DNA of 64,000 bases, taken from positions 15,770 through 79,769 of the forward strand of contig CANPIX010000003.1 of the NCBI GenBank assembly GCA_947574215.1. Reading direction: 5' to 3'. The stretch's first letter is position 1, and every line of letters begins with the position of its first letter. This DNA comes from an uncultured Mycoplasmatota bacterium. Lineage in GTDB: Bacteria > Bacillota_I > Bacilli_A > RF39 > UBA660. Positions 10,813 to 33,336 of the stretch are shown here, piece after piece. The notes beneath the pieces were generated by a model. It did no database searches and was not told the origin of the DNA. It saw only the letters and a list, made by a program, of their open reading frames with translations. Both the position numbers and the translations under genes were made by a program.

Positions 10813-10820
10813 ACAAACCT

Positions 10821-12112: not shown

Positions 12113-12191
12113 AGTAAAAGCCTCCCTTAAGCATTTTCTATATTTATTTTAATATACTTTTTCTTCTACGTCAATTTGGAGGCTTAATTTA

Positions 12192-14850: not shown

Positions 14851-14911
14851 TAAGTAAACTTGTACTTCAATTTCTTTCTTATTTTACTATACTATTTTCG
14901 TTTTCGCAATT

Positions 14912-15703: not shown

Positions 15704-15712
15704 TTGTTCTCC

Positions 15713-17938
15713 TTAATATTTATACATTACATATCCTACTAAATCGTCAGCACTGTAAGTATTTATTTTACCGTTTCCTGGATCATATACAGTAAAATTA
15801 CTACCTGACATCGATTTTAAAACAACATAATGTCCACTTAAATGCTGTTCATTTTTAAAGTGTAAAAGAATGCTTGTATTAACGTCTATATTCGATTGTA
15901 TTTCACCGATCTTTTGACTGGTATCCCAATCCGTCATTCTTATTTGTTTAATAAATCTAAATGAAGGGGCAAAGGAAGAAATAGCACTATTATTCCAATA
16001 AATACGTGCACCATCAAAACCTCCACTTGCATTCATTTTCTGTACAAGAGTCCCCGGATTAAATGAAGCCACATTATTGATTTGAACTCCAGAACATGAT
16101 ATCGCGATTGCAACAGACGTTACAGCACACCCTGAAGAACTTATATCTTGTGAAGAAGAGCCAAGTTTTATATTCCCCCATCTTTGGTCGCCTTGTCTAT
16201 AAATAGTACACGCTCCTTGTCCAGGTTCACCAATTTCTGCTGATGGTACACAAATATCTGCATCTAAGCCGAATATTTTTTTTCGAGCACTTACCATAGA
16301 TTGAGATTGAAAAACCAAATATGCTTGTTTATCCTCATCAGTTGTAGGAACACAGTCATCACCACCCGCAGTAGTACAAACCTTTCCAGAGGCACAAGCA
16401 TTTCTTACACGATCAGGAATGTTATTTCCATAAATTGCACTAGCGTATACACATCCACCTACTCCCCAACTCCCAGGGTTATACCAGTAATCTCCTAAAT
16501 AAGCATATTTCCCCATTAAATCTGTTAATGAGTCATATTTTGATATAAAACTTAAAAATCCAGCGACCCCATCTGATAAACTACTATAGGAAATACAAGC
16601 ATCATAGCCTCCTGTGTTTGTACATCCTAACCCCCAATAATTATTTTTAGAAGGTCCTGGAGAATAACCTTCAACATCTGCTCTAACAAAAACAAGTTCT
16701 GGATTTATACCATTTGATGTTGCCATATCATAAATCATTCCTGCACTGTCAGCTAAAATTTTTGCATTTCCACTAGTTCCATAGTTTTCTGCCCATTGAA
16801 TAAATTCCTCTCTTGATAAAGTTGTACTAGACATTGAAATTGGACTACAACCACTAAAATTATAATCATACAAGAATGATGAATCTATTGTGTAGTACTC
16901 AATATCTCTTCCATAATAATATTCTAATATGCGATACAAATCATATTGAGTGTCTACTTGTTCAAGCAAATATTTAGCACCATACAAGCTCATTGATTCT
17001 AATTTTTCGATTTTCTCTTTTTTCAATTTTAAAATTATTTTTCCTTTTTTGGCTTCTAAATTATCTACCCAATCGGCTGGAATAACTTGTTGTCTTTCTT
17101 CATTTTTATGTGTCATTTGATAGTAATATTTATTTTTAAAATTTTCATCTTCTTCTTTTCTTTTTGATATATATGTAAATGCATCATATTTTGCAGAAAT
17201 AGGTTTTTGATTTTGTCCTATTATAATTCCTTTGGTTAGTCTAACCGCATCGTTTATTTCAGTATACTTTTCTTCATCACCAGTAAGTTCTATAAAGCTT
17301 TTTGCTTGGTCATTATAATTTTTTAATACTACACAGGTATCAGGAAGATTGGCAATTAAACGACTTCTAGCAGCAATTGCCATAGCTTGATAAACGATTT
17401 CGTTATCTACATCCAATGCATTACGATTATCCGTCCAAATAATTCCTGCAATGTATGTGTCATAATCGTATTCTTTATAAGAATAACGTTTCCCAAACTC
17501 ATCTTCTTCTTCTAAATCTACAACTAAAGCTGGATCTGCCAAAGGTAGATATTCAGGTTCTTTTTTTTGGCGAGCTTTTGTATAAGCTGCATTTTCCCAT
17601 GTTAAAAAAACTTTTCCGCATATTGGCGCTTGATAATATTTTGGATTCGTATTTCCTGTACCTTTTATATCTATATCCATATGAAAATTTACAAAAGCAA
17701 CAAAAAGAAGAAGTGCAATCCCTATTATACTTCCAATTGCTACTCCTTTTAATAATTTAGAAAAATCATCTTTATTAATTGTAGCTTTTGCATCTTTAAC
17801 AGAACCATTTGCATTTTCTATTTCTTTTTTTTCAATTTCTTCTTGTAGTTGATTTTCTAATTCATTTTCTTTAGCTTCTTTAAGAATTTTTTCTTTTACA
17901 TTTTGGTTATTGTTTTCTTCTCCATGTTCATTATTCAA
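15713..17938 (-). CDS. Multi-domain cell-wall hydrolase of the secretion apparatus (VirB1/CwlT functional analogue)
   Basis: Charged N-terminal tail, one TM helix, a central Gly/Cys-rich glycosidase-like region, and a C-terminal C39-like/CHAP-like peptidase motif (QGDQRW...SGCAVTSVAIA...GHYVVL). Confidence 0.55.
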   Translation of the reverse strand: MNNEHGEENNNQNVKEKILKEAKENELENQLQEEIEKKEIENANGSVKDAKATINKDDFSKLLKGVAIGSIIGIALLLFVAFVNFHMDIDIKGTGNTNPKYYQAPICGKVFLTWENAAYTKARQKKEPEYLPLADPALVVDLEEEDEFGKRYSYKEYDYDTYIAGIIWTDNRNALDVDNEIVYQAMAIAARSRLIANLPDTCVVLKNYNDQAKSFIELTGDEEKYTEINDAVRLTKGIIIGQNQKPISAKYDAFTYISKRKEEDENFKNKYYYQMTHKNEERQQVIPADWVDNLEAKKGKIILKLKKEKIEKLESMSLYGAKYLLEQVDTQYDLYRILEYYYGRDIEYYTIDSSFLYDYNFSGCSPISMSSTTLSREEFIQWAENYGTSGNAKILADSAGMIYDMATSNGINPELVFVRADVEGYSPGPSKNNYWGLGCTNTGGYDACISYSSLSDGVAGFLSFISKYDSLTDLMGKYAYLGDYWYNPGSWGVGGCVYASAIYGNNIPDRVRNACASGKVCTTAGGDDCVPTTDEDKQAYLVFQSQSMVSARKKIFGLDADICVPSAEIGEPGQGACTIYRQGDQRWGNIKLGSSSQDISSSGCAVTSVAIAISCSGVQINNVASFNPGTLVQKMNASGGFDGARIYWNNSAISSFAPSFRFIKQIRMTDWDTSQKIGEIQSNIDVNTSILLHFKNEQHLSGHYVVLKSMSGSNFTVYDPGNGKINTYSADDLVGYVMYKY

Positions 17939-17961: not shown

Positions 17962-19746
17962 TTACAGTCCTCCTCCTGAACCAAATGAATCCAATTCCTC
18001 TTGAGTTACTATAACATTAATCCGCATTCTCCTATTACCACATATAAACAGTCCTTCCCCTTGATTGTAATATTTAATACTTTCCATTTCGGCTTCATTT
18101 AAATCAATTAATTTTCCTAAATCTTCAGTGGCTTGCTTACGAAGTCCCATAATTAAATAATAAGAGGCATTATCAAAAATTGCTTTTCCATGTACAAGAA
18201 CATTTGGTGCTGCAAAGTCTGTTGGCTGTTGGGTAATAATAATAGTACCTGTATTGTATTTACGACTACGTCTTTGTATTTGGGCTAAAAATTCTGCTCC
18301 TAATTCATTACGTGTTGATAAAAGGACATGAGCTTCATCTACACACATGACAGTATCTAAATCTTTATCCAAACACAATCCCCATGCGTATTTTAAAATA
18401 TTAAAGAACAAAGCATTTTTAATATTTTCATCACTATTCATAAGTTCACGAATATTAAATACTATGAAATCGCTTTCAATACTTAATGTAGTATGCCCTG
18501 TAAAATAGTATTTCAATTCTTTAACAAGTGGTCTTACTTTTAATTCTAAGCGTTCCATAACGTCTTTTTCATGCGTTTTATCTGGCATGGAAAGTAGTCT
18601 ACCTTTAATCGTTGCATAAACATCATCAAATGTTGGATAATCGTTAGCCGTTAATTTTGTAAAATCGGTATCATAATCAATTTTGTAACGTTTGTATGTA
18701 TCTTGTACTACTTCACTAAACATCGTTAATACATCTTCTTCAATAGAAGGAGAGTAATACTTCATAAATGCTTTTAATTGCTGTAAAGTTCTGGTTAGAA
18801 CTGTATAACCAAGGCCACTCTCAATTTCTTCTTCATCGGCATCCACAACAATTTCAAGCGGATTAATCATTCCAAATTCTCCACCTTTACCAAGGTCTAA
18901 GAAATCGCCACCAATATTTTTGGTCATTTCAGCAAGTTCGCCTTCTGGATCGATACAAACAACTTTATAATTATTTCGCAAATGACCACGAACAAGTAAT
19001 TTTGCTGCAGTTGATTTTCCACTTCCACTGGTTCCTAAAATAATCATATTGGCATTGTTACGATTGTTCTCTTTTTTTATTTTATAAAGAAATTGATTAA
19101 ATAAAACAACTCCACCAGAGAAATCTACACCAAATAAAATACTATTCCCTGGATCCTTAATACTATCAAAAATAAATGGATACATAGCGGCAACAGTGAT
19201 AGATGGAATCGGAGTTCCAACTCGATTTTCCACATCTTGTTTTGGAAAAATTGGTAAAATGGATTTTAATACTTTCTCTTGTTCGAACATCATAGGAATT
19301 CCACGCATTCCCATACCTTCTAAATAATTTCGAACTTGCATTTTTTTCATTTCTAATTCTTCTTTATTATCTGCAGAGATGAATAAATGCATTTGAAAAT
19401 CAAAAATTCTTGCTTGAGTTGCGGCAAGCATTTGAATAAATTGTTCTAATGATTCATAATCCTGACGAATTCGTTCTTGAAATGTTTTATCATTTTCTGT
19501 TTGGTATCTTTGCTTTAAATCAGCAATCTCTTTGTTTAACATTTTTTGCAAAGTTGAAAAAGCTATAGGAATATGCTTAATAGCTACTTTTACACCAGAA
19601 ATATTTGTAATATTTGCTAAATATCCCTCTGAAATATATTTAGGAAATGTTACAATCGTTAAAATAGTGCAATATTTTCCACTTATCAACATTTCCGTAG
19701 GTTTAAATTCTATTCCTTTTGGAGCTAATTGTGCTTTTATATTCAT
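17962..19746 (-). CDS. VirB4/TrsE-family type IV secretion ATPase (short form, 594 aa)
   Basis: Gram-positive VirB4 N-terminal YCTILTIVTFP motif. Walker A GTSGSGKST, Walker B MCVDEAHVLL and the RRSRKYNTGTIIITQ motif. Confidence 0.75.
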   Translation of the reverse strand: MNIKAQLAPKGIEFKPTEMLISGKYCTILTIVTFPKYISEGYLANITNISGVKVAIKHIPIAFSTLQKMLNKEIADLKQRYQTENDKTFQERIRQDYESLEQFIQMLAATQARIFDFQMHLFISADNKEELEMKKMQVRNYLEGMGMRGIPMMFEQEKVLKSILPIFPKQDVENRVGTPIPSITVAAMYPFIFDSIKDPGNSILFGVDFSGGVVLFNQFLYKIKKENNRNNANMIILGTSGSGKSTAAKLLVRGHLRNNYKVVCIDPEGELAEMTKNIGGDFLDLGKGGEFGMINPLEIVVDADEEEIESGLGYTVLTRTLQQLKAFMKYYSPSIEEDVLTMFSEVVQDTYKRYKIDYDTDFTKLTANDYPTFDDVYATIKGRLLSMPDKTHEKDVMERLELKVRPLVKELKYYFTGHTTLSIESDFIVFNIRELMNSDENIKNALFFNILKYAWGLCLDKDLDTVMCVDEAHVLLSTRNELGAEFLAQIQRRSRKYNTGTIIITQQPTDFAAPNVLVHGKAIFDNASYYLIMGLRKQATEDLGKLIDLNEAEMESIKYYNQGEGLFICGNRRMRINVIVTQEELDSFGSGGGL

Positions 19747-20348
19747 TCTGGCATCACCGTTCCTAACGTAGTAGCTTGTCCCCCATTAAAGAAATTATCG
19801 ATTAGCATTCTTAAATCATTATTAGACACTTGCATTGAATGCAAACCACATGTAGATAAATTACTAATTAAATTATGAATACGTTTTTGAACAATCTCTA
19901 ACTTTTTCTCTTTAAATAATATAAAATATTCTGTATCAACAACATTGTATTCTGCACTCATAAACATATTCGCTTTGTTAATATCTTGCATAATTAATTT
20001 GCGAATAGCTGAACTTGTGGAGCTGTTATATAAAACTTGTAATTGTGATAAATGAACATTTATATCCACTGGACGATCAGCAACAATAAGCCAAAATTCA
20101 TAATCCATTGTATTGTAAAAATTTCTCAAATTGTAAATAACATTACTCTGCGTGTCTTGATCTAAAATAAATATATTTTTAGGAGCTATTTTTACTCCTG
20201 TTACATATTCTCCAGAATCTAATTGAATCATTCCATTCATTATTTGCTTGATTGGTACCCAATCCTCCGTATATTTACTTATTGCTTTATTCTTTGCCAT
20301 CAGTAATACACCAGCCTTTCCAATATAACCTTTTTCTGCCAAAGACAT
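19743..20348 (-). CDS. Hypothetical protein translationally coupled to VirB4 (possible detached VirB4 N-terminal domain)
   Basis: Its stop overlaps the VirB4 ATG (ATGA overlap). No TM helix. Together, 201 + 594 aa is about the length of a canonical VirB4. Confidence 0.4.
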   Translation of the reverse strand: MSLAEKGYIGKAGVLLMAKNKAISKYTEDWVPIKQIMNGMIQLDSGEYVTGVKIAPKNIFILDQDTQSNVIYNLRNFYNTMDYEFWLIVADRPVDINVHLSQLQVLYNSSTSSAIRKLIMQDINKANMFMSAEYNVVDTEYFILFKEKKLEIVQKRIHNLISNLSTCGLHSMQVSNNDLRMLIDNFFNGGQATTLGTVMPE

Positions 20349-20601
20349 ACGTAACTATATTTGTTAATAATTGCAATACATTATGATAATTTGGAACAGG
20401 CATTACAAGAAAGGCTGAAATGAGTGCTGGTGATAAAATTAATAACAACGCCCCCATTTCAACTTTATTGTTAAACATGAAAAGTAATATTAAAGTAATA
20501 GTACAACCTAATCCAAATAGAACTAAATCAATTGGAGTAAAAAATCCTAATATTAACATTGATTTCTTTGAATTAGCTGGTATTAAATAATTATGATTCA
20601 T
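20287..20601 (-). CDS. VirB3-like small membrane protein (2 TM)
   Basis: 104 aa with two hydrophobic helices, immediately upstream of the VirB4 module, as with PrgI/TcpE-type proteins. Confidence 0.35.
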   Translation of the reverse strand: MNHNYLIPANSKKSMLILGFFTPIDLVLFGLGCTITLILLFMFNNKVEMGALLLILSPALISAFLVMPVPNYHNVLQLLTNIVTYVFGRKRLYWKGWCITDGKE

Positions 20602-20618: not shown

Positions 20619-22697
20619 TTATGATTTTTTAGAATTTGAATTATCTGATCCCCCACCAGTTGTTCCTCCAAAGCCAGCAATGCTTCCGCCTTTTGATACG
20701 CTTTTAAAAGCGTTTTCATACATAGTTTCCATTTTAATTGCTTCTGCAGGATTTTCTTCACGCCATTTTTTTGCTTCTTTTTCTGCTTGCCTTTGAACAA
20801 CGTATTTATTACTAGCTTTATAGTTAGCATTTGAATCCATAAATTCTTTTTTCGTTGCATTCAATATAGCTTCTTCATCAATTGCTAAATTACTCATTTG
20901 TGATTTTAAATTATCAATTGTAGAATTAGATGTTCTATTTTGCTCAATAGATATTTGTTGTTTTAATTCTGGATTAGAATAAGTAGAATTTTTTAAATTT
21001 TCAAGTTGGTTCAAAAGTTTTGTTTGATTTACGATATCGTGTTCATTACGTGCTTTTTCTAAATCCAATTGTAGTTTACGAATTTTTGCTTGTTTATTCA
21101 TTTCAAAACTTTCTTTTTCTTGTTGCATTTTAGCCATTAATTCTCTAATTTTAGTCATTTTAGAGTTTTCTAATTTTCTAATTTCATCAGTGATTTTTTG
21201 AGATAAATCGTTTCGTTGTAAATTTAATTCTTGTTGAGCATCAGCACGTAACTCATTTTGTCTTTGTTTAAATTCTGCAGATGTTTCTACTTTATTAATT
21301 TTTGCTGTTTCGCTTTCCAAATAAGTATCTTTTAACTTATCTTTACTTTTTTCTTGTTGAGCATCAAAAAATGCTCTTCCACCAAACCAGCCAGCTTTTC
21401 CCTTTTGATCTAAAACATTAGAATAAATCCCTTTTCTTTGTTGATTAAATTGGCCTTTTTTTCCTTTCCAGCCATTTAAAGCTCCATAAAGAAATCCAGA
21501 TTTAGTTGAAGCTCCCATCATAGCTGAGCCATACATTCCACCTAAACCGCCACTAATAGCACCAATTGTTCCTTTACCAACATAATTTATTGCCTTTCCT
21601 AATGGTCCGCTTGCATCTAATTTCCCAGCAATTCCTAATTTTAAATTTCCAGAGTCAATTCCTATAACATTACTTATTAGTTTAGGAGCTTGTTTTGCAA
21701 AGGCAAATAATCCCAAAACAATAATTATAAATCCAAAGAAACCAACATCTACAATATCGGAAGATAACATTTCTCCTTTAAAAATAGAAGAAGCTATAAA
21801 AACGGTTAAAAGCATAACAAATATGCGTATAAACACTTCTAAATAAGTTGCTAAAGTTGCTTTCACCCAGTTATCAAATACACTCTTTTTATTTGGAACT
21901 ATACGCAGCAGGATTGGGATAGGAGCTATAATTTGGTAAAAACCTAATTTAAAAACTCTTATACCTAAATCTAAACAAAAAGAAAGCAAACAATATAATA
22001 AAAAGCCACCACAAATTGTAGATATAATAGGAATATAATGCGCATTTTCACTATCTACTACCGTTTCAGCCCAATAGCCTATTTTCAAGAAATTACCATA
22101 TTTTCCTGCTGAAATTTCAGAAGTTAATTCTCCCCATGTTGGAGTATTACGAAATATAGAAAAAATCAAGTTTACTGTTTGAATACTATTTACTACTGGA
22201 TCTGGAGTAACTAACCAAGGTGCGTTTTTTTCTCCTTGAGCGTCTTCAGGAATTGTCAAAAATGATTCTAATATCATTAATGAAATTTCTGTCCCTTCTT
22301 TTGTAAAAGCAACTTTTTCATCTTTTAAAATAATTTGTCCAATTATATTATCTTTTACAATAAAAGTTTGCAATTCTCGTGCATAATAAAATATAGTAGG
22401 AACAATACTTAACAATACTAAGGAAATAATAATATTTATAGCTAACTTACTAGAATCTTTTATATTATCTGGATTTACTAGTGATTTTAAAAGAGAATAG
22501 GTTACAAAAAACAACATGCATATTCCAATTACAATATAAAAACGATTCGCTACTTTTTCAATAAAATCATTTTGTAATATTTGTGATGTTGCTAGAGCAT
22601 TATAAATAGTAAACAATTGAGCTACAAAAAAATAAACAATGCCATCAATTAAAAGAAAAAGTCCAGTTAACCCATATTTAAAAATAGCTCCTAACAT
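20619..22697 (-). CDS. VirB6-like polytopic channel protein (TcpH/TrbL-like)
   Basis: At least 7 TM helices in the N-terminal half, a Gly-rich linker, and a long C-terminal coiled-coil ending in a Gly/Ser-rich tail. Confidence 0.5.
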   Translation of the reverse strand: MLGAIFKYGLTGLFLLIDGIVYFFVAQLFTIYNALATSQILQNDFIEKVANRFYIVIGICMLFFVTYSLLKSLVNPDNIKDSSKLAINIIISLVLLSIVPTIFYYARELQTFIVKDNIIGQIILKDEKVAFTKEGTEISLMILESFLTIPEDAQGEKNAPWLVTPDPVVNSIQTVNLIFSIFRNTPTWGELTSEISAGKYGNFLKIGYWAETVVDSENAHYIPIISTICGGFLLYCLLSFCLDLGIRVFKLGFYQIIAPIPILLRIVPNKKSVFDNWVKATLATYLEVFIRIFVMLLTVFIASSIFKGEMLSSDIVDVGFFGFIIIVLGLFAFAKQAPKLISNVIGIDSGNLKLGIAGKLDASGPLGKAINYVGKGTIGAISGGLGGMYGSAMMGASTKSGFLYGALNGWKGKKGQFNQQRKGIYSNVLDQKGKAGWFGGRAFFDAQQEKSKDKLKDTYLESETAKINKVETSAEFKQRQNELRADAQQELNLQRNDLSQKITDEIRKLENSKMTKIRELMAKMQQEKESFEMNKQAKIRKLQLDLEKARNEHDIVNQTKLLNQLENLKNSTYSNPELKQQISIEQNRTSNSTIDNLKSQMSNLAIDEEAILNATKKEFMDSNANYKASNKYVVQRQAEKEAKKWREENPAEAIKMETMYENAFKSVSKGGSIAGFGGTTGGGSDNSNSKKS

Positions 22698-22719: not shown

Positions 22720-23205
22720 TTACCATCCGCAAATTTGAGAATTTATTTCTGCAATTTTCAATAAAAAATCTATTAATGTTGGTAAAACAAATATAATCAT
22801 TCCTATTATTATTCTTTTCATTAATTTCGATGAGGCTTTTTTTATTTCGTCTTGACTTTGTGCAGTCATTGCCTTAATAAAATCCATAATTCCTAATCCA
22901 ATTATTAAAATTGGAACTGCAAATTTCACTAAATGAAAAATATCTTTTAAAAAGTTCCCTAATCTACCTGAACACAGAACAGAATTATTCATTTGATCTA
23001 GCTTTTGATTTTCAACTAAATGATTCCCATCTACGCTAGCCAACTTTTTATATTCACTTTTTTGAATAAACGATATATTATTTATAGAAAAATTTAATGT
23101 TACAGATTCTTGAATTGGATTGATAAAAATTTTGCCACATACTTTTGAAGAGAACACAAGAACAACAAAGCACAAAAAAAATATATATTTTAATTTTTTT
23201 TTCAT
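22720..23205 (-). CDS. Secreted protein with C-terminal two-TM hairpin domain (paralog family, VirB2/TrbC-like candidate)
   Basis: Signal peptide. C-terminal ILIIGLGIMDFIKAMTAQSQDEIKKASSKLMKRIIIGMIIFVLPTLIDFLL...C is shared with the proteins at 23320..24498 and 25691..26101. Confidence 0.45.
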   Translation of the reverse strand: MKKKLKYIFFLCFVVLVFSSKVCGKIFINPIQESVTLNFSINNISFIQKSEYKKLASVDGNHLVENQKLDQMNNSVLCSGRLGNFLKDIFHLVKFAVPILIIGLGIMDFIKAMTAQSQDEIKKASSKLMKRIIIGMIIFVLPTLIDFLLKIAEINSQICGW

Positions 23206-23319
23206 TGAGAAAACTCCTCACCAGCAGTTAAAAAATTTAACTACACTCATTATATCAATAATTTAGTTTATTTACCAGTTAAAAATAAACTAAATGAAAT
23301 TTTCAAAATTCCCATTATT

Positions 23320-24498
23320 TTAACAATTTCTATTAAAAATACAGCGACGACACTGATTATAATCTGATCCTTCTTTTACAATACTTGAAAATATAAAATT
23401 TATTAATGTTGGTAAAATAAAAATTATTATTGCAGAAATTATTTTTAATATAAAACTTTTTGTTGCTTTTGATATAGCATCATTATCCGCTGAAGTCAGT
23501 GCTTTGGTAAATTCTATAATACCAAAAATAATTAATATAATTGGAATTATAATCTTTGCGATTAATAATAAATTTCCTATTAATTTTAGCGTACCTTTTA
23601 CCCCTTTATTATCGCAAAAACTTATATGAACCTCACTTTTTTTTTCATCCAGAATACCCAATTCCTCTTGAATTTCTTTGTTTTTCTCTTCTAGCTCTTT
23701 TTCAGATTGTTCCAAAAAAAATTCTGCATTATTTACCGCTCTACGATAATCTTTAATTATAGTATCCTCTTCATTAAAATACCCTTGATTAATATAATTA
23801 TGAACATTTACATCCCACGTTGAAATATTACTTTTTAAATTAGAAACTATTTCTTTGCATTCTTCATATCTTGTAATTGTATTTTCTTCCTTTGCACAAG
23901 ATTGAATAGAATAAGAACGAATTTGACTATTAATCATTTCAGTATATTTTTTTATATTTTCCTCTGCCTTTTTCTTATTTTCATTTGAAATTTGCATCCC
24001 TTTAAGAGTTGCAGGATATCTCTGGTTAGATAATTTTTTATTTAACTCTATTAAAGATTCTAAATTTTCTGCCATATATATTTCATACCCACCAATATTA
24101 AAAATCGCTCCATTTTCTAATCGTATAGATAAATAGCTGGGGCATCCATTATTATCTTTTACGTATTCTTTTGCTTGCCAATCATTTTCAACACTGGTAT
24201 TCCAATTTAATACACTTTCTTTATTTGAATTTCTTGTTGCACTTTCGCTTCCTACTTCCATATAACACTGATGTGTATAATCATCATATACATCGCACAA
24301 AACTCCCACTTGTTGATTTCCAGGGTAAGGGCTTAAAGTATCTGCAGCTTTATAATATTCACAAGTAAGTATCGTTTCTTCTGCTGATACCCACGATACA
24401 CAAAATACACTCAATAATAACATAAATATTAATTTTTTTAAGTTATGCATAAATATCCCTACTTTTTCTTTTTTATTATAGTATTTTTTTAATTCCAT
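23320..24498 (-). CDS. Secreted coiled-coil protein with the same C-terminal two-TM hairpin plus CRRC motif (paralog)
   Basis: Signal peptide; probable start MHNLKK. Extracellular Cys-containing domain. C-terminal IIPIILIIFGIIEFTKALTSADNDAISKATKSFILKIISAIIIFILPTLINF...CRRCI. Confidence 0.45.
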   Translation of the reverse strand: MELKKYYNKKEKVGIFMHNLKKLIFMLLLSVFCVSWVSAEETILTCEYYKAADTLSPYPGNQQVGVLCDVYDDYTHQCYMEVGSESATRNSNKESVLNWNTSVENDWQAKEYVKDNNGCPSYLSIRLENGAIFNIGGYEIYMAENLESLIELNKKLSNQRYPATLKGMQISNENKKKAEENIKKYTEMINSQIRSYSIQSCAKEENTITRYEECKEIVSNLKSNISTWDVNVHNYINQGYFNEEDTIIKDYRRAVNNAEFFLEQSEKELEEKNKEIQEELGILDEKKSEVHISFCDNKGVKGTLKLIGNLLLIAKIIIPIILIIFGIIEFTKALTSADNDAISKATKSFILKIISAIIIFILPTLINFIFSSIVKEGSDYNQCRRCIFNRNC

Positions 24499-24519
24499 TA
24501 CTAGAAAAATTCTGCAACT

Positions 24520-25632
24520 CTATCTAATATTATAAGGAGAATCAAAAGTTCCATTTCCATTAGCGTATAATACATCTCTATTTAAGGCTATAACGTATTT
24601 ATTATCCGCAGATGAATTAGCTTCTTCTGAAATAATTTCTCCTTTGTAAGAAATTGAAAATACATTATAAGTATTTGACATATCAGCTGTCATTGTCCAC
24701 CATTTATCTTCTGCATCTGCTAAATAATTATAATTTTGGCACTCATTACTAACTGTTGTCTGACAAAGACCATCCAAACTTGCATTCATATAATCATGTA
24801 TAGGCAAAAGACCAATATTTTGATCCTTTATTATTTCATTACATTCTGTATTACCACTTTTATCAGTGGTTTCCTCTAAACGTTTTCCTACACATAAATC
24901 GTATGGACTTAGAAATGTTTCGTATTCTTTTAAATCGTTATCATAAATCAATTTTAAATTACTAAAAGCTCTACTCAATAAAAAATTATTTATTCCTGAA
25001 TCACTTTCCTTTTCCGTATTATAACGATCGTCCCAAATGTCATAAATTTCTTCTTCTTTAGTCGACTGAGTTAAAATCATATTTATCGAGCCATTTTTAT
25101 TAATTTTAACAACTCTCCAAATTCTATCCGCAAACTGTACATAATTATTTGGATTTTGACCTCTAAAAATAAGTTCATTATTCATTTCATAAAGTCCTTC
25201 TCCCGTTTGTGTTAATTTATTATTGTTTTTTAAAACATCTAAAAATTTTTCTGTTTTAAATGAGTTACATGTTAAATAAGCTTGGTATTTGTATTCTTTA
25301 TTTATATAATCCACCAAAATATTTGCTGTACAAGAAGGATCTTTAACATATTTTTTTAATTCTTTGATATACTTGTTTTCTATTAATGTATCAGCATTTA
25401 TCACAATTGTTGGTTTTGTATCATTAGGAAGTTCACTGGGATTTTCTGTTAAAAATTTTAAAGCAGCGTTTTCTAAACGCTCTTCTAATTTTTCATAGGT
25501 TATTTTAATTCCCACAATTTTTACTGCTATAGCAATTGTAATTATAATAAACAACATTACAAATGCAACGCTACCAAAAAGAGTTACTTTTGCTTTATTG
25601 TTGCTATAAAAGCTTTTTAGTTTTTCTATCAA
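24520..25632 (-). CDS. N-terminally anchored extracellular protein (pilin-/pseudopilin-like architecture)
   Basis: Positively charged N-terminus, one TM helix, and a roughly 330-aa extracellular domain with several Cys. Confidence 0.35.
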   Translation of the reverse strand: MIEKLKSFYSNNKAKVTLFGSVAFVMLFIIITIAIAVKIVGIKITYEKLEERLENAALKFLTENPSELPNDTKPTIVINADTLIENKYIKELKKYVKDPSCTANILVDYINKEYKYQAYLTCNSFKTEKFLDVLKNNNKLTQTGEGLYEMNNELIFRGQNPNNYVQFADRIWRVVKINKNGSINMILTQSTKEEEIYDIWDDRYNTEKESDSGINNFLLSRAFSNLKLIYDNDLKEYETFLSPYDLCVGKRLEETTDKSGNTECNEIIKDQNIGLLPIHDYMNASLDGLCQTTVSNECQNYNYLADAEDKWWTMTADMSNTYNVFSISYKGEIISEEANSSADNKYVIALNRDVLYANGNGTFDSPYNIR

Positions 25633-25690
25633 TTTGCATCACCTGTATTAAAATAGTATCATATGACATAAAAAAAAGCAATTTAATTGC

Positions 25691-26101
25691 TTATTTTTTC
25701 CATAATGCATCTGCTCGACCACGACAGCCACTATCTCGTGGATTTACAATACATGTTCTACATAACTCATAATCCGCTTGGGCTTGTTCATTAAATCCAC
25801 CAATAATTCCAACTAAAAAGGAAACGATTGTAGGAAGCAAGAAAATAATAACTGCTGCAATGGCTCTTCTAACTAAAGAACTAGTTGCTTTTTTAATTTC
25901 ATCTTCTTTACTTGCGATAACAGCTTTTCCAAGATCAATCATCCCAAAAATAATTAATAAAAGCGGAATTACTATTTTAAAAACTAATAAAACATATCCT
26001 GCTATTTGCCAAATATTTGCTGTTTGAGAACAAAAACCACTTTTTGTTCCAATTTCAACCCCACTTTTTGCGGCGATTAAAAATAAATTTGTTAAATTCA
26101 T
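25691..26101 (-). CDS. Small two-TM hairpin protein with CRTC motif (third paralog; VirB2/TrbC-like candidate)
   Basis: IVIPLLLIIFGMIDLGKAVIASKEDEIKKATSSLVRRAIAAVIIFLLPTIVSFLVG...CRTCI. Has its own promoter and an RBS AAAGAGAGG. Confidence 0.45.
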   Translation of the reverse strand: MNLTNLFLIAAKSGVEIGTKSGFCSQTANIWQIAGYVLLVFKIVIPLLLIIFGMIDLGKAVIASKEDEIKKATSSLVRRAIAAVIIFLLPTIVSFLVGIIGGFNEQAQADYELCRTCIVNPRDSGCRGRADALWKK

Positions 26102-26225: not shown

Positions 26226-27221
26226 CTAAGACTTAAAGATATTAAACAATTTACTGTTTTTTGTATCTTCCACTCCGGTTTCTTCAAAACGAGAAAATCC
26301 CAATTTAATTAAGAATTCTTCAATAATTTTTTGATTGTCCAACTTATCATCTAAATTCGGTATATTGAAAAATACTTTGCTTTTGGATTCGTATTCAAAG
26401 TCTTTTATGTCTCTTGCATTCAAGATACTTCGATTTAAAACAATTTTTTTATCACGTAGTTTTTCAAAAGTACGCTTATCTTTACGAATCAATTTATTTA
26501 GTTTAATTAAACCTGGCTCAATTAAGTAAATGACTTCTGTGCAAGCACTAATGCTTCCTCGATCGTTTAAATCGACAAGCAAAACTTCAGCATCACTATT
26601 GGTAGCAATAAAGGCTGGTAAATCTAAACTAGACGTAGTTTTCAAACTCTTGTCGTTAAAATAAATAAAATCATGTTCATCGACTTCTACAGCTATTACG
26701 TTGTATTTTTTTGATAACTCTTTCTTTAAAAGATAAGTTAAGGTTGTAGATCCCGCATGATTGGTAACATTTTTTATTCCAATTACACGAAGATTTAATT
26801 TAGTATAATCTCCACCTTCATCACTTGTTGTATTTGCATTATTTAATTGATGATATTGAGCAACATCTTTATATGTATTAGGATTATTAATTAAAAATTT
26901 TACTGCGTCAATATTTCGGGTAAAATTATAAATTCCCATTGAAATTAAACTCGATAAATATTTGGGTGAATTTACAATTTCTGAATCGTCAAGTAAAATG
27001 ATAATATTACTTACATCCATACTTACTGATAAGTTTTGAATTGTTGCTATGTCTTGATAATTTTTTAAAGCTGTAATGTCTAAAATCATTTTGTTATAGT
27101 AAAAGTTTGTAAATTGATTTACTAAGTCTTCTACTTCAAATTCTCCATTAATATTTTTTATAATATCAATATCTAATGTTGCTAATAAAGATTGATATTT
27201 ATTGGATACAATTACGTTCAC
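26226..27221 (-). CDS. TadZ/CpaE-like protein: receiver-like N-domain plus ParA/MinD-like domain with degenerate P-loop
   Basis: Architecture matches TadZ/CpaE. The segment RVIGIKNVTNHAGSTTLTYLL aligns to the deviant Walker A KGGxGKTT but has lost the lysine and glycines. Confidence 0.4.
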   Translation of the reverse strand: MNVIVSNKYQSLLATLDIDIIKNINGEFEVEDLVNQFTNFYYNKMILDITALKNYQDIATIQNLSVSMDVSNIIILLDDSEIVNSPKYLSSLISMGIYNFTRNIDAVKFLINNPNTYKDVAQYHQLNNANTTSDEGGDYTKLNLRVIGIKNVTNHAGSTTLTYLLKKELSKKYNVIAVEVDEHDFIYFNDKSLKTTSSLDLPAFIATNSDAEVLLVDLNDRGSISACTEVIYLIEPGLIKLNKLIRKDKRTFEKLRDKKIVLNRSILNARDIKDFEYESKSKVFFNIPNLDDKLDNQKIIEEFLIKLGFSRFEETGVEDTKNSKLFNIFKS

Positions 27222-27224
27222 AAT

Positions 27225-27713
27225 TTATTCCTCCTTTGCAATTAAATTATCCGCTGAATTTACAATATCTCCAGTTGTCCCATTAATATCAAAAGTAAAT
27301 AAATCTCCTACTACTGGTAAGTTAAAATAGAAAAATGTATTTACTTTATAATATACTTTTCCCTCATTGTTACTGGAAGGCGCTTTTATTTTTGTAATAC
27401 AATAATGATATTTTTTACTTTTATTAGTAACCAATTCTATTGTGGGACGATTTAAGTCTGATACTCCATAACTTCCCAAAGTGCAAGGTTTAGTAACACT
27501 GTAATTATTGCTTTTCAAATAAGTATTCATAATAGCAATACTTCCTTCTTCTCCAGAAGTTATTCCTTCTCTTTTTTCAATAATTGATAGCATTTCATTT
27601 TTTACTTTAAACGCTTTAGTATAATTTAAAGATAACGCTAAAAAGGCTACAAATATAAGCATAAATACAATAATCAATTGGGTTAACCAAGTTCCACCTA
27701 TTGCTTCTCTCAT
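27225..27713 (-). CDS. TadE/TadF-like pseudopilin (minor pilin)
   Basis: N-terminal MREAIGGTW followed by a hydrophobic helix and a roughly 130-aa extracellular domain. Paralog of the next gene. Confidence 0.5.
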   Translation of the reverse strand: MREAIGGTWLTQLIIVFMLIFVAFLALSLNYTKAFKVKNEMLSIIEKREGITSGEEGSIAIMNTYLKSNNYSVTKPCTLGSYGVSDLNRPTIELVTNKSKKYHYCITKIKAPSSNNEGKVYYKVNTFFYFNLPVVGDLFTFDINGTTGDIVNSADNLIAKEE

Positions 27714-28210
27714 CTCGACAGCCCTCCTGAGTGACTCATAATTTTCGTATCTCCAGAAACTTGAAAATTAAACACACTTCTAAAAATTGGCAAATCTAGT
27801 TGGTAGAAAACTTTAATACGATAGTAATTCATTATCGGCATATCACTACTACTTCTAACCGATTGTTCTGCAATACAGAAGGCCGAATTTCGGCTATCTA
27901 GTTTTCCTTCTCTGTTGAATCCATAATAGCGAGTAATGATTCTACCAGATTTGTCTCGAATATCGTTTGGACAAGTTCCCGTTGTACGATAGGAAGTCTG
28001 CTTTAAATACTCAACTATTTTTTGAATCGCTGGATCATTTTCTGGATTTTGTAAATCCACACCTTCTTCTCTTTCGATTGCCTTTACAATTGTATTTTTA
28101 ACATTAAATGCTTTGGAATGGTTAATTGATAAACACATATATCCTGTGAAAAGTAAAATAAAAAATATAACAATTTGAAAAATCCATGTACCCCCAATCG
28201 CTTCTCTCAT
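27710..28210 (-). CDS. TadE/TadF-like pseudopilin (minor pilin), paralog
   Basis: Identical N-terminal MREAIGGTW motif plus a TM helix. Overlaps the downstream paralog by 4 nt. Confidence 0.5.
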   Translation of the reverse strand: MREAIGGTWIFQIVIFFILLFTGYMCLSINHSKAFNVKNTIVKAIEREEGVDLQNPENDPAIQKIVEYLKQTSYRTTGTCPNDIRDKSGRIITRYYGFNREGKLDSRNSAFCIAEQSVRSSSDMPIMNYYRIKVFYQLDLPIFRSVFNFQVSGDTKIMSHSGGLSR

Positions 28211-28223
28211 GTTACCACCTCAA

Positions 28224-28463
28224 CTAGCCTTTCCAAACGCATTTAAATTCTGCGCCCTCTTGTTTACCATTTTTATAATATTTACAGGTAACAAATCCAT
28301 CATTTAAAGTTCTTTTATCACAAATGGCATCGCTACATTTATTGTTCGCAATAAATGTGTTTTTTATATTCGGCCATAAAATACCAAAGAAAAAGACCGA
28401 TAGGATTGCTACCGCTACAACAATTACAACCGTCATATTTAGTTCTCCTGTGGCCTCTTTCAT
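28224..28463 (-). CDS. Flp-type prepilin-like protein with Cys-rich C-terminal domain (paralog 3 of 3)
   Basis: MKEATGELNMTVV leader, a hydrophobic helix, and a C-terminus with 6 Cys. Confidence 0.5.
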   Translation of the reverse strand: MKEATGELNMTVVIVVAVAILSVFFFGILWPNIKNTFIANNKCSDAICDKRTLNDGFVTCKYYKNGKQEGAEFKCVWKG

Positions 28464-28478
28464 AAGATTACTCCTTAA

Positions 28479-28745
28479 TTATTTTTTTATATTATTATTT
28501 GGACAAGTAATTTCTTGCATTTTGTTATTTCCGCTAAGATACATGCATTTACAGGTTTTCCCTGTACAAACACAATTCGTTGTCGCAAAACATTTCGTAC
28601 TATTTACAATGTTTGTTTTTATACTGGGCCATACAAACACATTAAAAAATAATGCGATTGCTCCTATTGCAGCAACGGTTACTACTGTGGTATTTAATTG
28701 TCCTGTTGCTACTGTCATACCAGAATTTTTTGTGGCCTCATTCAT
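28479..28745 (-). CDS. Flp-type prepilin-like protein with Cys-rich C-terminal domain (paralog 2 of 3)
   Basis: MNEATKNSGMTVATGQLNTTVV leader, helix, and a Cys-rich tail ending CPNNN. Confidence 0.5.
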   Translation of the reverse strand: MNEATKNSGMTVATGQLNTTVVTVAAIGAIALFFNVFVWPSIKTNIVNSTKCFATTNCVCTGKTCKCMYLSGNNKMQEITCPNNNIKK

Positions 28746-28763
28746 ATGTACAACTCCTATGCT

Positions 28764-29006
28764 CTATTTTTTAGTGTCATTATTGTTTGGACAAGTAATT
28801 TCTTGTGGTGTATTATTTTCATCTAAATACGTACATTTACAAGTCTTTCCTGTACATCTACAATCGGTTGTAGCAGAACATTTTGTACTATTCAAAATAT
28901 TTACTTTAATACTAGGCCATACAAATGCATAGAAAAATGCTGCTACGGCTGCTATTGCAACTACAGTTACTACTGTCATATTTAATTCTCCTGTTGCTTC
29001 TTTCAT
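28764..29006 (-). CDS. Flp-type prepilin-like protein with Cys-rich C-terminal domain (paralog 1 of 3)
   Basis: MKEATGELNMTVVTVVAIAAVAAFF, then CSATTDCRCTGKTCKCTYL...CPNNN. Confidence 0.5.
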   Translation of the reverse strand: MKEATGELNMTVVTVVAIAAVAAFFYAFVWPSIKVNILNSTKCSATTDCRCTGKTCKCTYLDENNTPQEITCPNNNDTKK

Positions 29007-29081
29007 TTATTATATACCTCCTCTATTATATTTTTTATTATATCTTTTTTTAAAAATAATATCAATATTTTCTATTAAAGG

Positions 29082-29870
29082 TTACATTCCCATTAACATT
29101 AAAACAGCAAAAATCAATAAAATCATAACACCTAACCCAGTAGTTATTAACATACTCATCGTTTTGGATTCCATTTTTTCTAAACGTTCTTTGTATCTTG
29201 TTTCTCTTGCTTTTTGTTGTAGATTGGATATTGTTTTGGAAAATGCTAGTAACTGTTCTTGTTTATGCTCTTGTCTTCCTAAACTTAAACGATACAAAAG
29301 TCTCATCATACGCATTGAATCTCTTACAGGATATTCTTTCGCAAAATTAATGTAAGGATCTATTTTGTCATTCCCCGCATTAATTTCATTTATTAACTCT
29401 TGTAATCCTTCTCTAAAAATTTCTGGTGCATCGTTAATTGATTTACCGATTGCTACTGGTACTGTATAATGTTGAATTAATATTTCTAAGCTTTTTAAAT
29501 AATGTGGTAACATTGAATTAATTTCGTGTAAATGTGCTTTATAATACTTTTTTATATTGAAGTAATCTAATTTAAATACTAAATAACCTCCAATAAAACA
29601 AAATAAAATTGTAACATAATTAAGTTTTGAAATAAAACAAAAAACAAGTACAATAATTGTAATTAAACCATTGCGTATTCTTTTGTTAAATAGAATATCA
29701 CTATTTACACCCTCTCCAAATTTGGCTTTTACATAAAAATCCCAATCATCTTCTTTTAGCTTTCGAAAATATACTTCATTGTCGGCGATAAAGCGGTTTG
29801 CACTAATTCTTCCTGTATAATTCATAACGTAAAGTATTATAACTCCTATAATTAAAATTTCAATGGCCAT
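29082..29870 (-). CDS. TadC-like platform protein (type II secretion system F-domain family)
   Basis: Topology matches TadB/TadC: an N-terminal TM, a cytoplasmic helical domain, and C-terminal TMs. Sits beside the TadA ATPase. Confidence 0.45.
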   Translation of the reverse strand: MAIEILIIGVIILYVMNYTGRISANRFIADNEVYFRKLKEDDWDFYVKAKFGEGVNSDILFNKRIRNGLITIIVLVFCFISKLNYVTILFCFIGGYLVFKLDYFNIKKYYKAHLHEINSMLPHYLKSLEILIQHYTVPVAIGKSINDAPEIFREGLQELINEINAGNDKIDPYINFAKEYPVRDSMRMMRLLYRLSLGRQEHKQEQLLAFSKTISNLQQKARETRYKERLEKMESKTMSMLITTGLGVMILLIFAVLMLMGM

Positions 29871-29871
29871 A

Positions 29872-30765
29872 CTATTCTACCCCCACATCTTGATTGTAAT
29901 ATTTTTCTCCACTTAGTAAGAAATAACAATTGATGAGAATGATGGCGTGTAAAATAAGCTTTACGTACCATATTTCCAATAATTCAATATAACTATCCGT
30001 TCCTAATAAAAATTGCATTGCCATTACAAGTAAGAACAAAGCAAGTCCAAAGGTAATAAAACGTTTGTGAAAATTTTTACGGTCTGCTTGGTCACGGTAA
30101 ACACCTTCTACCAAAGCATCGATATCTTGCGACATATTCTCTAAAGCTTCTCCTGAATCTTTTGCTCCTTCTTTCGTAATTTGTAAGAATAGTTGATTCA
30201 TATTTTTAACCATATAAAATGGATATTTTTCGTTAAAATAATCAATGGATTCGTCAATTGTTCCATTTTGATAAGACATTTCAATCATAGTTCTTACATC
30301 TTGTAAAACAGGATCTTCTAAAATACCTGAATCTCTTACACCTTCTAAAGATTTTACAAAACTCTGTGTTGTTGTAAATTCCATAATGACATTGGTTGTG
30401 TAAATTTGAATTTGTTCAAAAATAAATTCACTGTATATTTTTTGATAACGTAGATAAGATAAGTAAGGAATAAATGCAATGGCCACTATAGCGTATAAAA
30501 TCATTATCACTATATTATAAAAATAAAGATAAGAAATTCCGCCTGCTATAGCGGCAAACATAACAATTTGGCTAGTGTATTGTCGAACAGTAAATTCTTG
30601 CCCCAAATTTTTTACTTTTTCTCTTACTTCTTTATAACTATAAGGAGCAAACTTATCATATGTATCTTTTACTTGTGTAATAAAGAAACGATACACATTT
30701 TCTCCATTGTTTTGACGATAAGAAACTACATAGATTCCTATAATCCATAAAAGTATTAATTCCAT
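29872..30765 (-). CDS. TadB-like platform protein (type II secretion system F-domain family)
   Basis: Same topology as the neighbouring paralog; 2-nt gap between the two genes. Confidence 0.45.
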   Translation of the reverse strand: MELILLWIIGIYVVSYRQNNGENVYRFFITQVKDTYDKFAPYSYKEVREKVKNLGQEFTVRQYTSQIVMFAAIAGGISYLYFYNIVIMILYAIVAIAFIPYLSYLRYQKIYSEFIFEQIQIYTTNVIMEFTTTQSFVKSLEGVRDSGILEDPVLQDVRTMIEMSYQNGTIDESIDYFNEKYPFYMVKNMNQLFLQITKEGAKDSGEALENMSQDIDALVEGVYRDQADRKNFHKRFITFGLALFLLVMAMQFLLGTDSYIELLEIWYVKLILHAIILINCYFLLSGEKYYNQDVGVE

Positions 30766-30779
30766 ATTGCTCCTACTTT

Positions 30780-31901
30780 CTATATTGTACTTGCTACATT
30801 TCGATTTATAAAAGTAGCATTACTTGTATTTGAGGAAGAGATCGTTCCTGTTTTAAATATATTTTCTGGTAAAATAACACCTTGCACAGATAGATAATCT
30901 CTTAAATGTTTGGTTGGATTGTTTAAAGACAATTTTCCATCCATTGATTTTTGATAAATCGTATTCACTTGAGGTTTGTTATCTTCATCAACATAAAATT
31001 CACAAATTTCCATAATTTCTCTTTGAAAACGTCCAAGTTCTTTACTCATGTATCCTTTTACATATACGCCAATTTGTACATAACGATGAATTGTTGCTAA
31101 AAACTGTTCAACTTCTTGATTGGTTTCTAATAAACTATACATACGCATTGGAATAGAAGACGCTTTATCTGAGTGAATTGTTGATAAAATATGATGCCCT
31201 GATGAAATTGAATTACGAACGGCAAGGACAGCTTCTGCACTACGCACTTCGGATAATAATATCCAAATGGGATTTTGACGCATACAAGTCACCAAAACAT
31301 CTGTATAAGAGGCAATATTGTTGGTTTTCATCGCCACTATATCTCGATGAGGAAAAATACGATCCAAATGAAGTTCCAATGTATCTTCTATTGTAATGAT
31401 TTTTTCATCTTCTTTTGTAGTACTTGCCAGATATTTTACAAGTTCTGTTTTTCCTGAACCTGTTTCTCCACTTACAATAATGTTTGCATGTCCTTGTACA
31501 CATTGTAATAAAAATTCAAGTAAATCAGAGGAAACGTAGCGTTCATTTATTAATTTTTCTTTGTTTAGACGGATTTTTGCTGGAGTTTTACGAATTAAAC
31601 AAGCAATACCGTTTGTAGCTATAGAATCATGAATAAAATTCAAACGCAATTCAGTAGACTCTGCGTCCAAAAAAGGATGAGCCATATTAAAGGTTTTTCC
31701 CATAACATTTGAACATTGAAACGCTAATTTTTCCATTAAAGCGTTGTTAATCTCTGGGCGTTCAACTTTATAAACACCTTTTGAAAGCGTTTTTACCCAA
31801 ACTTGTCCACCATTACTGTAAGAGATATCTGTTACGTCGTCCACCCTTAAAAACTCTTCAATTGGACCAAAATCCAATTGGGAAAAGATAGCATCATCCA
31901 T
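30780..31901 (-). CDS. TadA/CpaF-family secretion ATPase (VirB11/GspE superfamily)
   Basis: Walker A IIVSGETGSGKTE. CpaF-type motif RQNPIWILLSEVRSAEA. His box STIHS. Confidence 0.75.
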   Translation of the reverse strand: MDDAIFSQLDFGPIEEFLRVDDVTDISYSNGGQVWVKTLSKGVYKVERPEINNALMEKLAFQCSNVMGKTFNMAHPFLDAESTELRLNFIHDSIATNGIACLIRKTPAKIRLNKEKLINERYVSSDLLEFLLQCVQGHANIIVSGETGSGKTELVKYLASTTKEDEKIITIEDTLELHLDRIFPHRDIVAMKTNNIASYTDVLVTCMRQNPIWILLSEVRSAEAVLAVRNSISSGHHILSTIHSDKASSIPMRMYSLLETNQEVEQFLATIHRYVQIGVYVKGYMSKELGRFQREIMEICEFYVDEDNKPQVNTIYQKSMDGKLSLNNPTKHLRDYLSVQGVILPENIFKTGTISSSNTSNATFINRNVASTI

Positions 31902-31936
31902 GGTGCAAACACCCTCTTTCCTATTCTTTTATTCTT

Positions 31937-32931: not shown

Positions 32932-33336
32932 TTATTGTGCATTTAATTCTAAAATAGCATCCACTTTATTCACAATATCAAATGTAGTCTGATCCCCTGC
33001 TACAATAAAACTTCTTGTTTTACTAGCGACTTTCACACTTACCTTTGGTGGGGCTTCATAAATTCCATAAAAGGAAATTTCATAGGTATTTAGACTTACG
33101 TTTTCGGCAAATCTTCTTAGAAAAGATTCAATAAATTTCTCACGATCTATTTTTAATTCACCATATTCACGATAATATCCATAATTTACAGCATCCACCA
33201 TGGCGGCTTCTGTTACTTCTTTTATTAAATAATAATCTTCTGTATTTTGTGTGGTAATGTTTGAGATTAACATCATAATTACAACCACAAATACACCTAA
33301 CATAATTAACCAATAACCCCAGTAAGATTCTTTCAC
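32932..33336 (-). CDS. Small N-terminally anchored protein (minor pilin-like)
   Basis: N-terminal TM helix followed by a roughly 100-aa extracytoplasmic domain. Sits between the adhesin and cpaB. Confidence 0.35.
   Translation of the reverse strand: MKESYWGYWLIMLGVFVVVIMMLISNITTQNTEDYYLIKEVTEAAMVDAVNYGYYREYGELKIDREKFIESFLRRFAENVSLNTYEISFYGIYEAPPKVSVKVASKTRSFIVAGDQTTFDIVNKVDAILELNAQ

Follow-up and report, generated by a model that had tools for sequence, protein, structure and literature searches.

What are the small hairpin proteins encoded beside a type IV secretion system (T4SS) in an uncultured Mycoplasmatota bacterium: pilin-like subunits of that system, or membrane anchors of another kind? 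The question is raised by positions 22720-26101 of a 64-kb stretch of contig CANPIX010000003.1 (hereafter the window, meaning the whole 64,000 nucleotides analysed). Within this interval three genes on the minus strand encode proteins of 161, 392 and 136 amino acids (aa), called here p161 (22720-23205), p392 (23320-24498) and p136 (25691-26101). All three end in the same two-helix module, which the initial annotation had tentatively taken for a conjugative pilin domain of the VirB2/TrbC type. We read the genes as a PF18895-type pilin-like array of a monoderm T4SS, in which p136 is the bare core subunit and p392 and p161 are rarer, head-bearing subunits joined to it through their hairpins; our confidence in this reading lies a little above even.

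A common C-terminal hairpin module

Pairwise BLASTP comparisons confirmed that the three proteins share a C-terminal module, 85-115 aa long. p136 and p161 are 41% identical over 73 aa (E 7e-17), p392 and p161 are 44% identical over 57 aa (E 7e-14), and p136 and p392 are 43% identical over 72 aa (E 4e-7). A hidden Markov model (HMM) of the three modules, run against the open reading frames (ORFs) of the window, matched these three proteins only. p136, the first gene of the array, consists of the module alone. In p392 the module occupies residues ~293-392 (23320-23622) and is preceded by a signal peptide, a Cys-rich beta domain, three long helices and a disordered linker, while in p161 it occupies residues ~76-161 (22720-22980) and follows a signal peptide and a short ectodomain. 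Two of the paralogs had been described as carrying large N-terminal domains. This is true of p392, with an ectodomain of ~270 aa, but in p161 the corresponding part amounts to only ~55 aa. An ATG at 24450 (M17 of p392) is accompanied by a GGGA ribosome-binding site and is the start used by most homologues; the true start of p392 is therefore probably there, 16 codons into the ORF, giving a 376-aa precursor with a typical signal peptide.

The AlphaFold2 model of p136 is a helical hairpin with helices at residues 23-63 and 66-100 (predicted local distance difference test score, pLDDT, 81-87) and outer segments of lower confidence. The p392 model (pLDDT 78.5) contains the same hairpin at residues 298-373, together with a beta-rich domain (42-165), the three long helices (172-279) and the disordered linker.

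A CxxC motif had been assigned to the end of all three modules. It is present in p392 (CRRC) and p136 (CRTC), but p161 ends in ...QICGW, with a single Cys after helix 2, and CxxC was discarded as a common motif. What all three proteins do have is a Cys on either side of the hairpin, the first just ahead of helix 1 and the second beyond helix 2. To place these residues in the family we used an alignment of 294 modules from related loci, where four cysteines (CCCC; C24, C114, C117 and C126 in p136) are found in 229 modules, the outer pair only (C..C) in 43, and other patterns in a few. The first and last Cys, which flank the hairpin, are kept almost always, and p161 (C78, C159) is of the C..C type. 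Given the numbers of the CCCC and C..C patterns, the CxxC pair is gained or lost as a unit. Other positions are also strongly conserved in the 294 modules: one proline in each helix, P46 and P90 in p136 numbering, is present in 100% of them, a Lys inside helix 1 (K42) in 87%, and the inter-helix segment D-x-x-K-A...K-x-D-x-x-K-K...R is well preserved. Among p136-like proteins (alignment A2) the outside segments and the loop are nearly invariant. The Cys pattern suggests that the outer ends of the hairpin are tied together, perhaps by a disulfide between C24 and C126, to which C114-C117 would add a second pair, or, in the CCCC form, by a four-Cys metal site.

Beside the cluster of T4SS and tight adherence (Tad) pilus genes, a divergently transcribed gene on the plus strand (37136-37576) encodes a 146-aa protein of thioredoxin fold, anchored in the membrane at its N terminus and with CSHC as its active site. 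It could oxidise or isomerise the many cysteines of the exported pilin-like proteins.

Module proteins other than those of the p136 type have a uniform layout. About 205 of 220 carry an N-terminal hydrophobic signal, have no internal transmembrane segment and bear the module at the C terminus, and the median number of residues after the module in these 220 proteins is 7. Because extracellular enzyme domains are found fused N-terminally or C-terminally of the module, both ends of the hairpin would lie outside the cell and the charged loop inside.

Affinity to the T4SS pilin family PF18895

The module matches PF18895 (T4SS_pilin), a profile of 71 positions with a gathering score of 26.6 bits. 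p136 scored 24.9 bits (E 2.2e-5) over profile positions 4-71, p392 scored 16.7 bits (E 0.0079) and p161 14.5 bits, the latter two also with near-full coverage of the profile; all three scores are below the gathering score. The affinity is a property of the family. PF18895 is matched at E <=0.01 by 28 of 29 p136-like homologues, the best at 8.7e-7, and many of the 1275 homologues of p136 carry a precomputed PF18895 annotation. What is more, an array member from another genome (L044:10047-11939) passes the gathering score with 27.7 bits. By the measure that Quinonero-Coronel et al. used to recognise VirB2-like pilins of Patescibacteria (PF18895 independent E-value <1e-3, coverage >50%), p136 is counted among such pilins. 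A weak match of p136 to the VirB2 homologue CagC (E 2e-3) was also obtained.

Conserved arrays linked to T4SS genes

When one genome per species was scanned, 311 stretches encoding a p136 relative were found, and 80 of these loci were fetched. All come from uncultured gut metagenome-assembled genomes, labelled Bacilli, 'Tenericutes', Erysipelotrichaceae or Ca. Ventrenecus, with a few labelled Muribaculaceae. In the 80 loci the p136-like gene heads a tandem array with 1-7 further module genes (encoding 104-744 aa) on the same strand. The initial annotation had allowed that the module might fall in an unrelated family or that the repeats might not be conserved in homologous clusters; the module matched PF18895, and the arrays are conserved.

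T4SS genes lie downstream of the array in 28 of the 32 loci that have long flanks. Tad genes upstream and T4SS genes downstream were found together in 21 of the 32, T4SS genes only in 7, Tad genes only in 2, and neither in 2. In two loci, L016 and L080, the p136-like gene directly adjoins housekeeping genes (pyruvate kinase, NrdD, Suf). This synteny, together with the flanks of L016 and L080, indicates that the array is part of the T4SS operon and that the Tad junction is lineage-specific. The placement of the genes exactly at the junction between the Tad and T4SS modules, as first described, is thus correct for this window.

The components of the locus diverge at very different rates. In the clade of the window (27 loci), identity is 93% for the VirB4 ATPase, 83% for the VirB4 N-terminal piece, ~90% for TadB/C and 89% for CpaF. 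p136 is 62% identical, and p392 and p161 can be aligned over the module only. For p392 just 11 homologues were found in 5.8 billion proteins. A literature search on RF39 or uncultured Bacilli together with T4SS found nothing relevant.

Transcription signals of p136

The initial annotation had given the 136-aa gene its own sigma-A-like promoter, and the related loci bear this out. The 124-bp gap before p136 contains the best promoter-like site of the region, TTGACA-17-TAAAAT (26163-26135, minus strand), which is followed by a ribosome-binding site, AGAGAGG. Although promoter-like sites are not enriched overall in this AT-rich region, the position is conserved: all p136-like genes examined (76 of 76) are preceded by a site that matches in at least 10/12 positions, compared with 13% of control windows. 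Immediately 3' of the p136 stop codon is a terminator-like hairpin, GCAAT-TAA-ATTGC followed by T8 (25670-25690, minus strand). A terminator-like element follows 65 of 80 p136-like genes; it is less frequent after other module genes (46 of 216) and other ORFs (53 of 613). From the conserved promoter and terminator, p136 is a separate, probably strongly expressed transcription unit, which fits a major structural subunit.

A model for the array

In the model that we propose, the hairpin inserts with both ends outside, and its charged loop (DLGKAVIASK-DEIKKA...RR) would face the cytoplasm. The outside ends would be clamped together by the two cysteines that flank the hairpin, through a disulfide or possibly, where four cysteines are present, through a metal. 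The ends of VirB2 and TrbC are joined by cyclisation, and the clamp would be the functional analogue of this head-to-tail closure. p136, with its own promoter and terminator, would be the bare and abundantly transcribed core subunit. p392 and p161 would be less abundant subunits, in which a signal peptide and a fast-evolving ectodomain precede the same hairpin, and they may join p136 at the VirB6/VirB4 machine via this shared hairpin, in a pilus or in a shorter envelope-spanning stalk. The variable heads would then be exposed on the surface, as adhesin-like domains in the window and as peptidoglycan amidases or peptidases in other genomes. VirB4 extracts VirB2 from the membrane in Agrobacterium, and the conserved cytoplasmic loop would be a plausible handle for the VirB4 ATPase.

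Evidence against a pilin, and a possible membrane anchor as the alternative

A number of observations weigh against this model. In the PF18895 search p136 falls 1.7 bits short of the cut-off, and other hydrophobic families (Frizzled, 7tm) also match at E 1e-4 to 1e-2. We compared alignment A2 or the 294-module profile, by hhalign in global and local modes, with nine VirB2/TrbC proteins from Ti, Ri and other plasmids. The probability was <1% and E was 0.07-0.23, with reversed-sequence controls at E 0.3-0.5; in the best local alignment, which is not significant, each helix is matched to its counterpart, and a gap of 16 residues falls in the loop. PF04956, the VirB2/TrbC family, was matched neither by the window proteins nor by the 29 p136-like homologues. 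Foldseek with the p136 model against the PDB, a search that discriminates simple hairpins poorly, returned no conjugative or archaeal pilin (best E 4), and the top matches with usable template modelling scores (TM-scores) were generic transmembrane hairpins such as HtrII. A sequence-profile search of the PDB with alignment A2 gave only spurious matches (Ebola nucleoprotein, opsins; E >=0.06).

The proteins themselves also differ from VirB2 in two respects. The inter-helix loop, ~24 residues long and highly charged, is unlike the short VirB2 loop of a few residues and would crowd the lumen of a pilus. Furthermore, p136-like proteins have 9-30 variable residues before an invariant Phe-Cys, and no Sec signal peptide was found there, neither a basic n-region nor an h-region. 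Without a signal peptide, p136 must insert as a hairpin unaided. Finally, no fibre has ever been seen in these organisms, which are uncultured. Of the VirB2/TrbC-like interpretation, then, the two-helix hairpin, the PF18895 match and the T4SS linkage hold, but no VirB2/TrbC profile similarity and no Foldseek match to a pilin were found. The putative link to VirB2 and TrbC comes from topology, gene context, the naming of the Pfam family and the one weak match to CagC, and that to the archaeal pilins CedA1 and TedC from topology.

Module genes are also found away from any T4SS. Two of the seven genes with C-terminal ectodomains described below were traced to contigs, L093 and L094, and on neither contig does a T4SS gene lie within 10 kb of them. 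In L094 a solitary module gene adjoins Mur ligases; in L093, a contig of a low-GC Firmicute, three module genes (10001-12413 and 15493-16842) are placed among housekeeping genes. The long charged loop, the lack of VirB2 similarity and these remote genes keep alive a plainer explanation, which we consider a serious possibility, if a doubtful one. The module would be a generic membrane anchor, a clamped two-helix tether for secreted domains. Next to the T4SS, the copies would then serve as adhesins, wall hydrolases or other accessory proteins of the cell surface; p136 would be an integral translocon subunit of small size, and there would be no pilus. The fusion of enzyme domains, hydrolases and esterases among them, to either end of the module agrees with a tether. 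However, p136 carries no cargo, and what it would do as a mere tether is hard to see; it is nevertheless more widespread than any other member and has a conserved promoter and terminator of its own. The near invariance of its outside segments and loop, the tie of the arrays to VirB6/VirB4 in 28 of 32 loci and the match of the module to PF18895 also speak against a simple anchor.

Variable ectodomains and a possible delivery of effectors

The variety of domains attached to the module raises a second alternative. A profile search of 1.84 billion representatives found 8,151 clusters (at 50% identity) with E <=1e-3. The best 149 of these clusters comprise 74 with nothing but the module, 68 with an N-terminal ectodomain and 7 whose ectodomain is C-terminal; in some family members the module comes first and an enzyme-like domain after it. 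We scanned 71 diverse long paralogues against Pfam and found Amidase_3 in three ectodomains, Peptidase_C39_2 in two, Peptidase_M15_4, NlpC/P60 and a C-terminal domain like that of VgrG3 of the type VI secretion system (T6SS) in one each, and Cys-rich repeats in three. Two of the proteins are bifunctional wall hydrolases: L044:10047-11939 combines Amidase_3 and NlpC/P60 with a C-terminal hairpin, and L034:12603-14450 combines Peptidase_M15_4 and Amidase_3 with the module. In L093, two tandem genes encode an identical N-terminal ~200 aa (hairpin and linker) and differ in their C-terminal domains, one of which is GDSL-lipase-like. This is a polymorphic cassette layout.

Such a layout, the fused Amidase_3, Peptidase_M15_4, NlpC/P60, C39-like and VgrG3-like domains and the very fast evolution of the ectodomains would be expected if the hairpin were a trafficking domain through which variable heads, be they amidases, peptidases, lipases or esterases, or adhesins, reach the T4SS for display on, or delivery to, neighbouring bacteria, with p136 as a carrier scaffold. 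We think this improbable. No immunity genes were identified, some of the fusion genes are far from a T4SS, and Gram-positive T4SSs normally include wall hydrolases directed at the cell's own wall. In addition, no enzyme domain was recognised in p392 or p161 of the window by Pfam and NCBIfam, nor in the p392 model by Foldseek. The three-helix part of p392 was also considered as a VirB5-like domain, for which there was no support, since Foldseek against the PDB gave nothing below E 0.35.

That the three genes belong to the adjacent Tad pilus, as anchors or minor pilins, is hardly credible and was rejected on synteny: the array is directly downstream of Tad genes on the same strand, and Tad genes are upstream in 23 of the 32 well-flanked loci, but 7 of the 32 have the array and the T4SS with no Tad genes, pyruvate kinase or Suf genes abut the p136-like gene in L016 and L080, module proteins have no prepilin-type leader, and the p136 promoter begins a new transcription unit.

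Gene neighbourhood and mobility

The region has a low GC content (26-35%), and the minus strand, on which all genes given with coordinates in this section lie, holds nearly all genes. Independent gene callers give the same genes (331, 136, 370, 392 and 161 aa) in identical public contigs. The interval had been described as three paralogs. The three ORFs exist as described, but a fourth gene is interleaved between p136 and p392 in the clade of the window. This gene, p370 (24520-25632), encodes a protein with an N-terminal membrane anchor and no module. The protein, which ends in a GNGTFDSPYNI-type motif, has 309 homologues (identity 34-84%); in Pfam and NCBIfam it matched no family, and p370 follows p136 in 27 loci.

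Directly downstream of the array is a gene for a VirB6-like polytopic membrane protein, p692 (20619-22697), which matches the NCBIfam family of the Mbov_0396 transmembrane protein of integrative and conjugative elements (ICEs; E 2.8e-6). In 53 loci a VirB6-like gene follows the array. Helices 1 and 2 of p692 (residues 46-105) gave a match to PF18895 at E 0.067, and the segment ...LLSIVPTIF... resembles ...IIFLLPTIV... of the module. The similarity is marginal, with the module HMM reaching ~1e-3 in just two homologues, and we do not claim this hairpin as a pilin module.

Next come a TcpE/VirB3-like protein of 104 aa and a split VirB4 (together 17962-20601). The VirB4 split consists of two overlapping ORFs at 17962-20348 and is kept in 45-46 related loci. 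Against the NCBIfam profile VirB4_plasma, the 201-aa piece matches positions 98-276 (E 2.5e-14) and the 594-aa ATPase positions 294-891 (E 1e-106). The rest of the T4SS (12598-17938) comprises a 741-aa C39-like wall hydrolase, a 263-aa protein and a VirD4-type coupling protein, the last matching the NCBIfam CD1115 family with 304.8 bits against a cut-off of 250.

The Tad-type pilus module on the other side of the array (26226-32803) encodes a ParA-like protein, two TadE-like proteins, three small Cys-rich pilins, TadB/C-like proteins, the CpaF ATPase and RcpC. The TadE-like proteins (27225-28210) start MREAIGGTW..., and the three small pilin-like proteins (79, 88 and 80 aa; 28224-29006), in tandem and with Cys-rich C-terminal parts, start MKEATGELNMTVV...; the leader and cleavage motif looks atypical for Flp or type IV pilins. 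The two TadE-like and the 79- and 88-aa pilin-like proteins have no match in Pfam, and the 80-aa protein, which was run against NCBIfam only, has none there. A 935-aa protein (33353-36160) and a DUF5411 protein (32932-33336) head the Tad module and are syntenic in 28 loci. The former has no family match and diverges fast (38% identical between members of the clade), and may be a surface protein associated with the pilus.

No relaxase, integrase or transposase was matched in Pfam or NCBIfam among the scanned window ORFs, which were nearly all those of at least 100 aa; six ORFs within the cluster or beside it (181, 252, 262, 263, 297 and 935 aa) and a 421-aa ORF further downstream had no family. 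The flanks consist of housekeeping genes (two class-I aminoacyl-tRNA ligases of the Tyr/Trp type, leucyl-tRNA synthetase, FtsW, PBP5, UppP and MurJ), and a tblastn search of 72,556 plasmids in PLSDB found no p136 homologue. On these grounds the system is chromosomal and not obviously conjugative. As a separate observation, the leucyl-tRNA synthetase (938 aa; 53519-56335) has a NUDIX domain match at residues 372-486 (E 8.6e-10), inserted after the editing domain.

Comparison with known systems

The closest parallel is found in Patescibacteria. According to the 2025 study of Quinonero-Coronel et al. and a review of December 2025, Gram-positive T4SSs have no VirB2 homologues, with the exception of those of Patescibacteria. 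In the latter (Ca. Southlakia epibionticum, TM7x), arrays of 2-11 divergent PF18895/VirB2-like genes accompany an MPF_FATA-type T4SS, and the array is essential in one species. Their clusters mostly have no relaxase, and a separate TrsD-like N-terminal VirB4 piece is the commonest T4SS component. The arrays described here resemble them in the Pfam family, matched over the whole profile, in the tandem divergent paralogues beside a T4SS of MPF_FATA type, in the separate N-terminal VirB4 piece, in the chromosomal location with no detectable relaxase and in the monoderm host with a type IV pilus system. They differ in the host, which belongs to the Bacillota (Bacilli). The present arrays have large N- or C-terminal ectodomains, including wall hydrolases, and conserved cysteines that would form a clamp, which may also set them apart.

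With VirB2 and TrbC (the T-pilin of Agrobacterium, TrbC of RP4; PF04956) the module shares the small hairpin of two hydrophobic helices and the position of its genes beside VirB3, VirB4 and VirB6. The ends would in both cases be on the outer face and joined, there by cyclisation and here by the conserved cysteines. Besides the differences in sequence profile, Foldseek result, signal peptide and loop given above, the ectodomain fusions and the monoderm host set the present proteins apart. CedA1 and TedC are hairpin pilins for DNA import, with VirB2-like topology, in archaeal organisms with a single membrane. The likeness suggested earlier is one of topology only, and neither the sequence-profile search of the PDB nor Foldseek against the PDB found a match to them.

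Tandem, sequence-variable pilin paralogues are also a feature of the Trw T4SS of Bartonella, in which multiple variant copies of trwL (VirB2) and trwJ (VirB5) are thought to diversify surface binding. Bartonella, however, is diderm and has a bona fide VirB2, and its variation is in small pilins, not in fused ectodomains. The ICEs of Mycoplasma (module CDS5, CDS13, CDS15, CDS16 and CDS17) resemble the locus in the T4SS core: the best NCBIfam matches of the split VirB4 (357.7 bits) and the VirB6-like protein are Mbov_0397 and Mbov_0396, with scores below the cut-offs. p136 also gave weak matches to two families from this group, MAG4940_fam (16.3 bits, cut-off 35) and MMCAP2_0566_fam (15.5 bits, cut-off 90), both below cut-off. 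The MAG4940 match is in the C-terminal, hairpin-like part of the model and is a lead only. Unlike the Mycoplasma elements, for which no VirB2-like component has been described, the locus shows no match to a transposase or an ICE backbone, is placed among housekeeping genes and includes a wall hydrolase.

What is new here is the host phylum and, apparently, the fusion of ectodomains and enzymes to either end of the hairpin and the conserved, putative Cys clamp.

Implications

The PF18895 pilin-array architecture of this locus and its relatives, with 311 matching stretches in the one-genome-per-species scan, extends to the Bacillota what had been stated as an exception confined to Patescibacteria. 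If the hairpins do not assemble, the module would still be a widespread and undescribed design of membrane anchor, with ~8,000 clusters at 50% identity. If they do assemble, they would be a novel means of equipping a conjugation-type fibre with functional heads, and it would become testable whether monoderm T4SSs build pili and what abundant gut Bacilli do to their neighbours. A broader scenario, speculative and on the whole unlikely, is that a lineage of gut Bacilli with reduced genomes maintains a vertically conserved chromosomal T4SS in the style of Patescibacteria, with no detectable relaxase, and that its hairpins build the first known T4SS pilus or stalk of the Bacillota, a scaffold for adhesins and wall-degrading enzymes directed towards neighbouring cells. 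If true, this would suggest that these bacteria live as parasites or predators through cell contact and that the Patescibacteria system originated in the Bacillota.

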